Of a DNA stretch of 64,000 nt, positions 833-6,441 are shown piece by piece (position 1 is the stretch's first letter; each line of letters opens with the position of its first letter). This DNA is from Ptychomitrium polyphyllum. Taxonomy: Eukaryota. The stretch is taken from assembly GCA_973851085.1 (NCBI GenBank), contig OZ316775.1:20646001-20710000 (forward strand). The letters are read 5' to 3'. Under the pieces are notes generated by a model. The model was given only the letters and a program-made list of their open reading frames with translations, did not search any database and had not been told where the DNA came from. The translations under genes were made by a program, and so were the position numbers.

Positions 833-1617
833 AGTCTCGGACATCATTTTGGGGTCCTCTTTGTGCCCTTAGTATTGCGGGCACTTCAAAAGGAGAGGTA
901 TGCAATATTAAGACTTGAGAAAATACTTTTAGTAATTTCTTTTGCATTGCAAGTTTTTGCAACTTTGTGGCTATCAACCGCAAGCGTATGCCGGTTGGTC
1001 TAGTCCACTTGCATCTTGCAATTTGTTGTTTGAAAGAAAATCCAAATTTTGAATTTTTGATTTTTGTTACGGTACCTTCTCATATTGCGAGCATTGTTGC
1101 TATCGGTTTACAGTATTGCTCCATTTTGTGTTGTGTTTAGTCTGTGTTTATAAGCGTAATGTAAGGATGAAGTCGGATTGATAATCGACAAGATCTTTTT
1201 CGTTGGTACCATATGGGCGGTACTTGTTGGACCTAAAAATGATCAAAAGTGATGACTGATTCATCATATAGTTTGGTGGTAATTGCAAATTCAGGTGCAG
1301 GTTACTCATTTATCCTTTAGATAGTTGCAGATATCCAAGTAGTCATTTTTATGGTGCAGACATGGAGTTGATATTATCGATCTCCGTCATCAAACTACTT
1401 GGAGGGTGCACACACTAAAGACTTTGAGCCAGCGGTAGATACTAACAAGGCTTTTGATCTTATTTCGATGTTGGATATTATTAGTAGGCTTCACGTTTGG
1501 AGTGTGGACACGCTAGACGAGATGGACAACGATCCTTGCCATATTGTGAGGGATCGGTTCTCTGGAAGAACTGGAGGCATTTCCCTATTTAACTAGAAGC
1601 TTAAGTTTTGGACCCGG

Positions 1618-2700
1618 ATGAAGGAAAAACGCCAGTGGCCTTTGAGTTTCAATGACTGGTACGCATTTGAGCTGTTGCCACAGCATTTGGAGTTTGAGGC
1701 ACTTCATATATATGAACGGTGGATTGATGAGCATGAGTTCCAATTGCGTGCGGTGGAATGCTATTGGAAGGCTTGTGTGGAGTTTATCTCTGCCCTGAAG
1801 GAAGGTGTAGTGGCCAGTTTGATCGCTACAATGAAGGTGGAAGAGAATCTTGCAGAAGAGAGTGGTTCATCTTTCAAAGACATAAAAGACAAGGCTCCAG
1901 TAGTGAGTCAACCCTCTATCACAATATCACGAGTGCCGTAGGCTACGTAGGCAATGTTGTCTGCAATTGGTTAGTCACTGTTGTTTGAGCCACTTTGCTT
2001 GTTCATAGCTCATCTGGAGGTTGAGTATGGGGGCTTTAGATGTGATCAGATACAACGCATCTAAGACTTCCATCGGGAGAAGGAAGATACTCTACGTACC
2101 ATGTATACCCGGTTGGCGAGGTTTGCAATGGAATCTGGAAGTGTATTTACAGAGAGTCATCTTGTCAAGATCTTTTGTCCAAAGTTGACAAGCGACTGCT
2201 AGGCTTGGCTATGCCAAGGATTATTCTCATATACCACAGTCGAGCAACGTTGGCTCAAGCATTTACCAAAGTTGAGATGTGTGATCGAGCTCTCTATCAG
2301 CACGATGCCACTAATATGGTTTCTTGGATGACAGATGCTTCCAAGTCCAAGAAGGCTTCTACTGTTACTATTAGTTTGGCAGAGACTCAACCTGAAAAGA
2401 CTTTGCATTGTTGAGAGTATGGTGAAGCTAGCCATACCAAGAATGACCCTAATTGCCCTAAAAAGAAGAAAGCTCCAACATTGAATAAGTCTAAGCAGAG
2501 GGCAGATATGGTCAAGACTGCAGAGAAGGCCAAGAAGAAGCAGTTGAAGTGTTCTCATTGCGGCAAGCTCAACCATGATGATAATCACTACTTTATTTTA
2601 CATCCAAAGAAGCGGCCTATTTTGGAGAAAGAGAGAGCATTAGAAGCCAAGATTACAGAGCTGGAGAAGCAGTTCCAGACTGTGGCTTCATTGGGTCACG
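1618..2700 (+). pseudogene. Retrotransposon gag remnant with zinc knuckle(s)
   Basis: ORF pieces 1618-1941, 2175-2414 and 2481-2900. Helical gag-like text (LEYGGFRCDQIQRI*DFHREKEDTLRTMYTRL) is followed by Cx2Cx4Hx4(C>Y) at 2550-2591, with a more decayed knuckle near 2405-2460. Confidence 0.65.
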
Positions 2701-3399
2701 TCATTGACTCTAGAGTGATTCCTCGAGGTGGAACAGGCACTTGTGCTTTAGATTTTTATATGTTTGGGGCTGCAGGGGAGATGGTGGCTGCAGTTGCCAT
2801 ACGTGCCCAAACAACAACTAAGATGGTGACAACCAATATGGATGAACCACAACAGTGCTTGCGTACGCGTCATAGTGGTTCATTAGATCAGATTGGCTAA
2901 GCCTGGTTGCCATTATCATTTGGCCTTGCAGATTCAGGTTTTGCATCTTGACTTATTCTTCCGGCTTTAGCACAAAATGGAGGAATTGCTTTTAGAGACT
3001 TGTATCACACTTTGGCACACAAGGTGTTGCATATGCCTATTTTCTCCAATGTCGAGCTAACGACACCAAATTTTCATCAAGCTGGGATTTTTTACTTGGC
3101 TGGCAAGATGTTGGAAGGTAAGGTGGCTATGCCATCTTTGGAAGTGGCTCAAGCAGTCACTAGGCCTTCTACAAATGAGAATTTGCTATGTTGCAGGCTA
3201 AGCTTGGAGCTAAAGCCATTGCAGCATTTGATGTAGGTGCTTCACAGCAAATGAAGCCATGTCCTCATTTGATGCGCTATTGGCTACAAGAGTGGCATAT
3301 TTATCTGATGTTGCAGCTAGGCCTACTTGGGAACATCAAAACTTGCAACCAAGAGTTGTGCAGCTAGTTAATGACAACAATGTACTTATTATTAACCGT

Positions 3400-3800
3400 A
3401 CTAGTGGCAAGGCCACTTGTACTACATCAGTGAGAGTTATAATAGACCATAGTGCTTAGCCAGTCATGATTGGCAAACAACTTGTTCAAGAGCTAGGTCT
3501 AGGTGAATATGTAGACCTTAAGCCTTGTCCATTTACCATCATCACTTTAGTTGGAGGCACAGAGCATGCTACTGGCTATACTAGACAACCATTGCAGTTG
3601 ATTCTCCCCATTGGTTCTGGACCTCTTTACTCACACTTGTCTCTACAATGTGCAGTGACTATTCCTACCAACTATGATATTTTAATTGATTAGCAGGTAC
3701 TTTATCGGCTTGGTTTTGGTTTTGACAACTGAACTGAAGAGGCGTGGATTAGGCCAGGTTGGTCCGCAAGAGATGGAAGAAAAGAACTCATTCCTATAGC
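3400..3800 (+). pseudogene. Retropepsin-like aspartic protease remnant
   Basis: VRVIIDHSA*PVMIGKQL is a decayed hydrophobic-D-S/T-G-A motif. It is followed by ITLVGG and NYDILID*QVL, matching the usual retroviral-protease 'D.LLG' tail. Confidence 0.6.
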
Positions 3801-4111
3801 ATTTGCAACAGTTGGAGATTATGTTGGCGGAGACTTTATTTGGTTGTTGCGCCTTAGCAACAAACTTACCTTGTAGACCTATTCTGCTAGAGGAGACATT
3901 TGCATTTATATCTAGTTCAGTGAAATAACATGGTTTACTACCTTTAGAGGTTCCTGCACAACATTGCAAGGACCCATTTCCATCGTGGAACACTCCAGTA
4001 GAGCTATCTCGGCAATGCCGGGAGATTGTGGCTTCATTGGAGCTTTTGGAAATACCAACTACCTCATCATTATCTGCCTTTGTCCATCCTATTCATTGGC
4101 ATCCACCAACT

Positions 4112-5060
4112 GAGGGTATTATCCTTGTGGAGCTATTTGCGGGCATTGGTATTAGTTTGGCGACTGTTTTGGAGGGTGGACTCAATGTCTAGTGGTACAT
4201 TCATGTGGATACTGGATTTGTATCCAATCAAGCAGCCCAACATCACTTCCAGAGGTTATTGGCTCTATACCTGGAGCAGTTACCTTCATCTGTCATTCAC
4301 GGTTGTTTTGGCCAACTCCCTCAAGATGTCACTTTCATTAGTGATGAGGATTTGAAGAGATTGGACCATGTTAACTTACTCATTGCTGGATGGCCTTGTC
4401 AAGGCCATTCACGTGCCAAAGCGGGTTGAGGTTTGGATGATTCCTAGTCAAGTCTATTTGCAGACTTAATCCGGCTCACACAATGGTGGTTTACACACCA
4501 AACTACACCACCTTGGTATATTTTTAAGAATATGCCTCCATTAGGTGACACGCAAACAAAGGTTTTAGAAGATGGGCAATATATTTGCCAATTCCTTGGT
4601 CCTCCAATCTTTGTGGATGCTGCATCCTTGGATTCTTACGCACATCGCCTTTGTTGGATTTTGACCAATTTGGCACCATCTCATGTACTCACGGTAGCAC
4701 TTTCTAGAATCCAATAACCCATTGGACGCAAGGTGGATGATTTGTTAGATGATCATCGCGTTGCCTTGGCTGTTTCCAAAGACAATGAATCTCTGTTGGC
4801 TTTTATCAACAAGCTGGGGGCACCTCGTAGCGTGTTGCCAACATTGGTGACATATCTAGGATCTTTTGCATTCCGAGCACGTGTGCCTGATATGGTTCGG
4901 GATTCACCTTCACAAATTCATGAAGAGCCTATTGCAGATGAGAGGGACCGCGCTATGGATTTTTTGACAAGCACTATAGCTGCTCATGATTTCACTGAAG
5001 ATCAACATTGCTTTCTTCTGGGCCAAGCTATAGACCTCAACACTTTGGTGTGGATTTTTG
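4112..5060 (+). pseudogene. C5-cytosine DNA methyltransferase catalytic domain (DNMT3-like motif spacing) embedded in the retroelement polyprotein
   Basis: All motifs lie in one frame (frame of 4205). Motif I VELFAGIG (4127-4150); motif IV LLIAGWPCQGHS (catalytic PC at 4394-4399); motif V GLDDS*SSLF; motif VI YIFKNM (decayed ENV, 4526-4534); motif VIII VDAASLDSYAHRLCWILTNL (about 4613-4672); motif IX ERDRAMDF (4940-4963); motif X LLGQAID (about 5015-5035). Four internal stops. Confidence 0.85.
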
Positions 5061-5311
5061 GCATTTTTCTTGTTGTCCAGCAACATCATGATGGCCATTT
5101 GCTTTCTCTGAGGTCAGAGAGCAATGGTCAAGGGGTAGTAGAGCCAAAATTCATTGAGATTGAGGAATTTGAATTACTCAGTGGTATCTTGTTGCTTGAA
5201 GGCAAGGATGGACGGGAGTGTCGGGAGCATTTAAAAAATTGTGCTCCATGTCATCTTCCTATTGATGGTTCTGTACAACCTCAGTTGGCGGTTGTGCCAA
5301 ATGGCTTTTCT

Positions 5312-5447
5312 TATTTTGTGTGTGGTGAGAAGAAAGGAGCGGCTACCATGTTATTATGTGACCAATGCCAACGTGGATGGTACATGGCATGTTTAACACC
5401 ACCCCTTTCAACTCTACCTTCTACAGATTGGCTTTGCCCTCGTTGTC
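5312..5447 (+). other. PHD finger (C4HC3) at the C-terminus of the retroelement polyprotein, two ligands mutated to Tyr
   Basis: (C>Y)FVC-x9-LLCDQC-x3-W(H>Y)MAC-LTPPLSTLPSTDWLCPRC in ORF 4733-5488. Confidence 0.85.
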
Positions 5448-6441
5448 AGAAGTCTTCCAACCATTTGTTAGATGGTGACAAGAATTGAAGACTTCTTGGA
5501 GGTTTGCCACATGTTTTTGTGTTGAAGCTGCCATTTAGTTGGTAGGTATCAGTCACCAGTTCAATGTTAAGCATTAGGGGAAGTTGACCAAGGGATTTAA
5601 CACCAAAAACCATTGAAGGCAATTAAAGATGGGGCTTACATTGCATCCCGCCTGCAGTTTTTTAGTTACTTCTCCACTTGGTTGCTTGATCCTTTGTACT
5701 TGCCACAATACCAACATGGATGTATACAAGTGTTGTAGCAACATCACCATGGGGATCATCTCCAACAACGTGTGTGTTTGTTCCTAGCTGATTAGAGGGA
5801 CTCCTTATCTACTAGGGAGGGCACTTTAGGATGTGCTTGTTATGCATTTGGGTTTGGCTTTGATTTCATATTTGATGATTGATGCTGGCACTTGATCTGT
5901 TGTGTGTGATGATCTTTGTTTACACAACAAAGCCCTCTTTGTTAACACTAGTTTACTTGCTTTGAGGTGTATGCTAGGGTTGTCAAATTTAATAAGTCAA
6001 AAAAATAAAAATTGAACAACTTATTGGATGATGGTTATGACGGACGTGGCAAGTGACTTGACAAGTTCATTTGATTTTTTTATAGCAATTTAAATTTAAT
6101 TTTTACTTTTATTGTGCCTTGAAATTAATAATAATTTACTTGGATATTTTGAATATTTAAGATCAATAAAAAAATTAAGCCCACATGTATAAAGGATGAT
6201 GTGGCAATAAAAAAGACAATAAGGAAGAAAATCAAAATTTATGTGGATAAATTGATTATGGATTCAAGGTCTACAGATTATAAATTACAGTCTAAGAATT
6301 ATGGATCTAGGTCAAACAACTAGAAGTTGCAATATGAAAACCATGGATCTAGATTTAGCGACTATAAGATGTTGTTTAGAAACTACGGGTCCATGTCTGA
6401 TGATTACAAGTTGCGGCATAAAAAACTACTAGTCAAAATTT

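Follow-up and report, generated by a model that had tools for sequence, protein, structure and literature searches.

We analyzed a 64,000-nucleotide stretch of the moss Ptychomitrium polyphyllum (contig OZ316775.1, positions 20,646,001 to 20,710,000; here called the window) and found that positions 955 to 5929 hold a dead, internally deleted copy of a Ty3/Gypsy retrotransposon from a moss family carrying a DNMT3-like C5 cytosine methyltransferase (the DNMT domain). The window copy itself is fossil, and it is the family that is of interest. The reading that we favor, with a probability of about 0.6, is that in intact members the methyltransferase closes the Gag-protease open reading frame (ORF), Pol is reached by UAG readthrough, reverse transcription is self-primed, circular cDNA is opened at a palindrome within the long terminal repeat (LTR), and the enzyme marks the element's own cDNA.

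The methyltransferase domain and its conservation

Six methyltransferase motifs were read in linear order in a single plus-strand frame between 4130 and ~5030 (I at 4130, IV at 4388, a decayed VI, KNM, at 4526, VIII at 4616, IX at 4940, and X at 5015). The initial annotation of this DNA had proposed such a linear set in one frame, and all of its motifs were recovered at or near the positions it gave. It had also suggested a Pfam check: the frame read through with X at the stops matched PF00145 with an E value of 4.5e-7 (30 bits, cut-off 22) and the PHD finger with 5.4e-9. When the window protein was compared with PDB by phmmer, the matches listed (60 of 120) were to PHD fingers alone, and a family profile was therefore needed. 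Built from 12 sequences, this profile gave 57 PDB matches, with DNMT3A, DNMT3B, and DNMT3C ranked first (E values of 1e-24 to 9e-19), followed by DRM (4e-12 to 5e-10) and then by bacterial enzymes (1e-8 or weaker) and DNMT2. Profile positions 2 to 128 aligned to the C-terminal part of DRM, a permuted match, whereas the order in the element is linear. A host DRM was excluded as the source, since its motifs are circularly permuted. The structure of the corresponding domain of L001, an intact relative, was predicted with a pLDDT of 90, and Foldseek placed DNMT3 enzymes in the top ranks, DNMT3A and DNMT3B being best (E value of 8e-19, TM [TMq] of ~0.7). Judged from profile ranking and predicted fold, the methyltransferase domain is genuine, nonpermuted, and DNMT3-like, in agreement with the original proposal.

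Catalytic residues are well kept in the family. Among 17 ORF1 relatives, motifs I, IV, and VIII were retained in all and ENV in 16, and the domain is intronless. The dN/dS ratio of the DNMT domain was 0.07 to 0.13 in five of six intact pairs (the remaining pair was saturated), which by this measure places it under purifying selection in the intact relatives. The corresponding values were 0.03 to 0.04 for reverse transcriptase-RNase H (RT-RH) and 0.01 to 0.02 for integrase, with some pairs saturated. The methyltransferase of the family is presumed to be active. The initial annotation had envisaged an element able to methylate its own cDNA or insertion site; for the window copy itself, methylation is excluded by four in-frame stops and the loss of ENV. 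A quick DNMT tree placed the window domain beside that of L001 in a 13-row clade (SH-aLRT of 100), grouped with Marchantia domains (91); its deep forks are open, and host DNMT3, MET1, and CMT sequences were not included.

Anatomy and decay of the window copy

By blastn, L001 and the window share 82% nucleotide identity over 955 to 5178 (4.2 kb) and 74% over 5180 to 5929, so that the window copy corresponds to L001 623 to 4850 fused to L001 7921 to 8659. An in-frame 3.07-kb deletion took the ORF1 tail, the readthrough stop, RT, RNase H, and the integrase core; the copy lacks these enzymes because the deletion joins the DNMT region to the integrase tail and PHD finger. The ORF1 region has also suffered 17 stops and four frameshifting deletions. 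Gag, zinc knuckle, and protease had been placed ahead of the DNMT domain; this arrangement was upheld by collinear tblastn matches (58 to 77% identity) to the intact ORF1 of L001, not by Pfam, in which none of eight other window pieces, including these, matched the relevant family. L001 ORF1 and its relatives do match Asp_protease profiles, and some match zf-CCHC, mostly below curated cut-offs. The gag-like region is presumed to encode capsid from its position, in the absence of a Pfam match. The earlier assignment to a Gypsy-type element holds, but its interval (1540 to 5488) was too narrow, the true extent being at least 955 to 5929. The true 5' end, with repeat A1 and the primer site, is missing from the window, where a very high-copy repeat of another kind lies upstream.

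Relative to L001 and L002, the window copy carries 176 private changes, of which 136 are C>T or G>A, affecting 32 of 100 CG, 36 of 157 CHG, and 68 of 596 CHH sites. This decay is as expected of a host-methylated repeat and is uninformative on the element's own enzyme. Contigs from the host's sequencing runs covered 30 of 30 bins of L001, including RT and integrase. Their summed depth across the element was 530 to 1,440, compared with ~40 for a unique flank contig, which suggests tens of related copies in the host and is not to be read as a copy number. An older second remnant of the same family, with other sequence interposed, lies at 32287 to 34067 (plus strand); it comprises an integrase fragment (32318 to 32836, 42% amino acid identity to L001 ORF2) and an end resembling terminal repeat B (33959 to 34067, 67%, E value of 0.001).

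Intact relatives and their distribution

A search among longer proteins found 28 homologues. Seventeen are intact ORFs of 1,228 to 1,775 amino acids with 40 to 75% identity, comprising a gag-like region, zinc knuckles, protease, and DNMT; RT is absent from them. The remaining 11 homologues are of the Pol type and contain RT and/or integrase domains. Intact copies show the domain order gag-protease-DNMT-RT-RH-integrase-PHD. This order had been predicted between two LTRs, and only the order was found: the copies consist of two ORFs split by a TAG codon, with split direct repeats and no LTR pair. ORF2 encodes RT, RNase H, integrase, and PHD, and measures 1,047 amino acids in three complete cases; no chromodomain match was obtained in the intact relatives, which have the PHD finger instead. 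In the 5' leader of one of them, L003, two tandem 144-nucleotide copies (78%) occupy positions 127 to 414.

Relatives of L001 ORF2 were found in Coleochaete (65%, a transcript assembly), Calypogeia (64%), Riccia (63%), Closterium, and Marchantia (Mp2g26090 and MARPO_0091s0058, both protease-DNMT-RT-RH). Klebsormidium KFL_009030040 has the order protease-DNMT-RT-RH-integrase and is 47% identical to L001 ORF2. In the Pol-type homologues P0019 to P0029, which include Haematococcus, Chlamydomonas eustigma, and metagenomic records, the DNMT domain lies between RNase H and integrase; PC and ENV motifs were present in both chlorophyte-type sequences read. When 37 fetched proteins with both RT and DNMT were compared, DNMT preceded RT in 17 and followed it in 20. 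In integrases, the canonical spacing of the Glu from the second Asp is 35 residues. This spacing was 34 in 88 of 96 scored proteins, including those of Klebsormidium, Closterium, Calypogeia, and the RT-RH-DNMT-integrase types, and 35 in eight more distant Gypsy-like matches. These comparisons favor a single old green-lineage clade in which the DNMT domain would occupy two alternative slots. The liverwort and Klebsormidium relatives and the shared spacing favor the suggestion that a broad lineage shared with the Klebsormidium elements is present in land plants. Both an RT FastTree and the DNMT tree grouped moss with liverwort elements; deep forks are open, and KFL_009030040 sits on a long branch.

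The metagenome scan confirmed four loci among 160 pattern matches, and the genome scan one among 36; host assignment of the metagenomic loci is indirect. Matches in a viral collection were confined to weak ones of the phage methyltransferase type (30 loci, 28 to 58% over short stretches), with none to the junction pattern, and the Atlas yielded generic C5 methyltransferase clusters only. Two copies, L035 and L039, are contained in a cyanobacterial genome bin (G001; contigs C201, C148, and others), together with several other retrotransposon RT contigs (nine matches). ORF2 carries a cyanobacterial reverse transcriptase label in public records. Plant contamination of the bin is the likely explanation.

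The stop codon between ORF1 and ORF2

In all four loci that cover the junction, DNMT ends the Gag-protease ORF1 and is followed by an in-frame TAG and directly by ORF2. The six bases after TAG are CAGTTA in two loci and CAATCA in the other two, both matching UAG_CAR_YYA, which is kept despite a Leu/Ser change. This is the readthrough motif of tobamoviruses (PMC3542737). It should be noted that the four loci are related and do not represent independent events, although synonymous sites among them are near saturation. The first ATG occurs at codon 117 in two of three ORF2s, past a conserved block at codon 78.

Split terminal repeats and predicted self-priming

No LTR pair was detected by direct-repeat search in the window, L001, or L003, nor was one found in L035, although collapsed assemblies could hide one. 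The right end of the element was located from contigs that leave L001 at base 8659 with dissimilar flanks (12 of run X1, 11 of X2, and 4 of X3); window position 5929 is the equivalent base. Two joints in X4 pass from this base into the element's own interior. An ACA + 2 nucleotides + TGTCAC junction, a short palindrome, occurs in L001, L003, L035, and L039. L035 is a circular contig of one unit. L039, from the same assembly, reads PHD, 3' untranslated region (UTR), polypurine tract (PPT), B1 (106 nucleotides), GC, A2 (360 nucleotides), B2, and flank, with B1 and B2 100% identical over 106 nucleotides. The PPT immediately precedes B1, whereas B2 adjoins A2 without one. Repeat A also precedes the 5' leader in L035 and the predicted primer site in L001. 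As pieced together from these contigs, the family organization is A-coding-B-A-B, with split direct repeats. The complete unit L035 contains no ORF of tyrosine recombinase size: ORF1 and ORF2 are the only long ones, and other frames remain below 170 amino acids.

Repeat A holds a TATA-like box at a spacing identical in L001, L035, and L039. In L001 and L035, the two loci that cover the 5' region, 13 bases starting 30 nucleotides from the box are the perfect complement of the bases directly after A, with a two-base compensatory change in the pair between the two loci. None of 200 shuffles reached such a complement for L001 or for L035. The complement is absent after A2 in L039. No primer site was seen after B, and Rfam and tRNA-type matches were absent; a search of the noncoding part of L035 against Rfam returned one subthreshold chance match. 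Self-priming by the RNA 5' end, similar to that of Tf1, is predicted on this basis.

In run X3, the A repeat region (L001 8709 to 9019) had a depth of 193, compared with 0 to 7 for the coding region. By analogy with SIRE, which derives from VIPER, this hints at nonautonomous A-B derivatives.

Proposed replication cycle and alternatives

According to the favored reading, transcription would start ~30 nucleotides past the TATA box in repeat A. The TAG codon would halt most ribosomes, and there is good reason to expect that DNMT is produced and packaged at the Gag level, whereas readthrough would supply the Pol enzymes in minor amounts; if readthrough is correct, DNMT would be as abundant as Gag. 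The RNA 5' end probably pairs just after A1 and primes the minus strand, with the PPT before B priming the plus strand, which would yield linear cDNA with an LTR of B+A at both ends. Since the PPT precedes B and the primer site follows A, the functional LTR would be B+A with outer ends other than TG/CA, and the TG/CA pair would be internal, at B|A. Lacking TG/CA, the linear ends may lead to circularization and to cleavage of the B|A palindrome by integrase: a two-LTR circle so opened would give A-coding-B-A-B, and a one-LTR circle would give A-coding-B, as in the window. We regard this part as an even bet. No tyrosine recombinase is encoded, and the DDE integrase is therefore the likely enzyme to open circular cDNA; the chemistry has a precedent in foamy virus integrase, which is reported to cleave palindromic circle junctions (PMC1180852). 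Packaged DNMT may then act on the cDNA or circle ahead of insertion by methylating it, and a new copy would thereby arrive marked like host heterochromatin, a step to which we assign slightly less than even odds. To judge from its family, the PHD finger would steer insertion through histone-tail reading. Extended tentatively to a green-lineage Gypsy clade of mosses and liverworts, the scheme would place the attachment site within the LTR, make a DDE integrase dependent on circular cDNA as its precursor, and have capsid-level DNMT3 methylate the circle before insertion.

Several observations weigh against the scheme. The CpG observed/expected ratio of intact coding regions was 0.55, 0.70, and 0.78, compared with 0.73 for a host gene; not being consistently under the host value, it provides no compositional trace of heavy CG self-methylation. 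A Klebsormidium DNMT domain did not methylate yeast DNA, a result its authors are reported to call inconclusive (PMC5890265). Downstream of the stop, no conserved RNA structure with compensatory changes was detected; L003 ORF2 has an ATG at codon 14, and codon +5 past the stop is ATG in one locus and GTG in three. Covariation in the priming helix, with two informative sequences, was not significant (129 of 500 shuffles). The B-A-B end is known from one contig, L039, and neither a 5' insertion junction nor a target duplication was seen, no locus spanning both flanks. Circular L035 fits a collapsed assembly equally well as a real circle, and the coding-B end in the window may equally stem from B1 × B2 recombination.

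Among alternatives that concern the ends, the split repeats of the same family could be rebuilt with no circle involved, through additional template switches of the reverse transcriptase on a linear intermediate. DDE integrases normally act on linear ends, the A-coding-B-A-B template contains all the sequence needed, and no circle was directly observed, L035 being ambiguous. However, ordinary priming would give B+A ends and not TG...CA, since the PPT immediately precedes B1 and the predicted primer site immediately follows A1, and B2 abuts A2 without a PPT; we consider the linear route rather improbable. It is still less probable that B by itself represents a short LTR of the conventional kind and that the B-A-B end of L039 is a tandem or nested accident. 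Although B comes after the PPT and has CA at its end, and the window copy and many host contigs stop at it, its start is not TG, and the TATA box and predicted RNA start are in A, outside B. The primer-site complement likewise follows A and not B, and K. nitens copies are also reported to have DIRS-type repeats (PMC5890265).

The enzymes invite alternatives of their own. DNMT might be kept for another role, namely, nucleic acid binding in the particle, RNA methylation, or marking of the target site after insertion. The lack of yeast activity of the Klebsormidium domain, the absence of consistent CpG depletion, and a constraint weaker than that on RT-RH and integrase would fit such a role, which we nonetheless hold to be unlikely: PC, ENV, and AHR are kept in 16 to 17 of 17 relatives, the predicted fold is a full DNMT3 domain, and the DNMT3 domains of SymbioDIRS are reported to methylate CG de novo (PMC5890265). 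Production of ORF2 by reinitiation or splicing instead of readthrough appears improbable. The ATG or GTG at codon +5 in four of four loci makes reinitiation possible, and gene callers place the ORF2 start there, but CARYYA is kept in all four despite saturated synonymous divergence, the ORFs are in frame without a gap, and, with the protease in ORF1, Pol would normally need fusion for packaging and processing. Finally, mosses are reported to possess nonpermuted host DNMT3 genes (PMC5890265, PMC12344493), from which a pseudogene might have lodged by chance among retrotransposon fragments. The initial annotation had reserved this outcome for the case that the domain nested in the host DNMT3/DRM clade with intron-bearing relatives and no other genomic copy linked DNMT to gag and protease. 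Such linked, intact copies were found, the window is collinear with L001 and free of introns, and the same fusion recurs in 17 protein clusters, so that chance juxtaposition is refuted.

Comparison with known elements

DNMT3-bearing Gypsy elements are already known from Klebsormidium nitens, and the moss family is a land-plant variant of KnitGypsy-Dnmt3 (PMC5890265). The two share Gypsy enzymes, an intronless nonpermuted DNMT3-like domain, purifying selection, and DIRS-type repeats, the last reported without explanation in the available text of PMC5890265; KFL_009030040 matches in domain order, in Pol identity (47%), and in the 34-residue D-E spacing. In contrast to KnitGypsy-Dnmt3, in which DNMT is described in one ORF with RT (PMC5890265), the moss family has a land-plant host and carries DNMT in the Gag ORF before TAG-CARYYA. 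Self-priming, the PPT/primer geometry, and an internal end palindrome are not part of that description as far as the text is available. Three features were found that the papers searched do not describe: the TAG-CARYYA layout, the predicted Tf1-like self-priming pair, and split repeats with an internal integration end. Bryophyte members, the readthrough layout, and an internal attachment site were not described in the literature searched, with Repbase, most subscription papers, and supplementary figures beyond its reach. Text supplements of PMC5890265 and PMC12344493 contained no bryophyte elements; supplementary figures may show land-plant members, because later papers, in the parts available, mention DNMT3-bearing Gypsy elements in "streptophytes" only.

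The order protease-RT-RH-integrase is that of canonical Ty3/Gypsy elements, whereas identical TG...CA LTRs at both ends were not found. Circle-mediated integration is the accepted model for the tyrosine recombinase elements PAT, Ngaro, and VIPER. The same A1-coding-B1-A2-B2 ends are described for these elements (PMC6681497), but the moss family lacks the tyrosine recombinase that characterizes them and DIRS, and instead encodes a protease together with a DDE integrase. A primer site complementary to the RNA 5' end, predicted here, is reported for the self-priming chromoviruses Tf1/Sushi and Tcn1; Tcn1 is found in mosses, and Tj1 has a stop between gag and pol (PMC6317226, PMC4600332). The moss family differs from Tf1 and Tcn1 in its PHD finger in place of a chromodomain, its DNMT, its split ends, and its 34-residue spacing, compared with 35 in the eight outgroup-like matches. 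Other classes of retroelements with cytosine methyltransferases are SymbioDIRS-Dnmt3 (PMC5890265) and EpiLTRs, whose DNMT is described as a DNMT4 sister accompanied by DAM and chromodomains (bioRxiv 10.64898/2026.05.21.726589). Troyka elements (CG...CG termini, animal hosts; PMC12440569) were rejected as a match, the ends here being TG/CA-like.

These findings extend the range of DNMT3-carrying Gypsy elements from one charophyte alga to land plants, with intact copies and tractable hosts, and the question raised in 2018 about the purpose of a retrotransposon methyltransferase becomes testable against moss methylation mutants. The stop codon layout predicts a Gag-level enzyme and points to a job inside the particle. 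How the DIRS-like repeats of KnitGypsy, so far unexplained, might arise is suggested by the end geometry. For elements with a DDE integrase, LTR circles are usually deemed dead ends, and the anatomy here implies a precursor role. LTR-pair finders would miss the clade, and the REXdb paper, in the text available, mentions neither PHD nor methyltransferase. Such copies can also inflate host DNMT3 counts in bryophytes.

Features of the window and its neighborhood

Table 1. Annotated features of the window
Feature	Positions	Strand	Evidence
5' leader	955..1350	+	blastn to L001 from 623; depth step near 936
Decayed gag-like part of ORF1, from ATG; stops, one frameshift	1351..2408	+	tblastn of L001 ORF1 residues 1-284 and 280 onwards; alignment
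Two zinc-knuckle-like motifs, both decayed	2409..2591	+	Translation; CCHC-type motifs conserved in alignment of relatives; zf-CCHC matches in P0011, P0012, P0015, P0017
Decayed aspartic protease, catalytic motif near 3445	3415..3720	+	D[ST]GA in 17/17 relatives; Asp_protease_2 matches
DNMT3-like C5 cytosine methyltransferase domain with motifs in linear order; interrupted by four stops; decayed ENV	4109..5083	+	PF00145; family profile; predicted fold of L001 domain
Junction of 3.07-kb deletion (L001 4851-7920)	5178..5180	+	blastn; one contig of host run X2 shares this joint
Integrase C-terminal remnant and PHD finger (PHD ~5318-5446)	5180..5488	+	PF00628, 5.4e-9; 77% to L001 ORF2 944-1047
3' UTR: conserved block ~5618-5660, conserved hairpin ~5783-5815, PPT 5814-5823	5489..5823	+	Alignment; consensus fold of three relatives
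Terminal repeat B, 106 nt, ends ACA = right integration end; unique flank beyond	5824..5929	+	Length and position as B in L039; X1/X2 contigs leave L001 at equivalent base
tRNA-Pro(CGG) gene	7860-7931	-	

An intronless PPR gene of the PLS-DYW type at 13340 to 16060 (plus strand) shares 87% identity with a protein of Ceratodon and 79% with one of Physcomitrium, which identifies the host as a moss. For the neighboring host stretch, no RNA holder was listed, which is uninformative on expression. Window positions 1 to 936 belong to a different repeat, with a depth of 11,000 to 71,000 in the host's runs, compared with ~800 for the element in X1; it adjoins or interrupts the 5' leader. Just right of the element, a degenerate 21-bp tandem repeat occupies positions 6315 to 6551.

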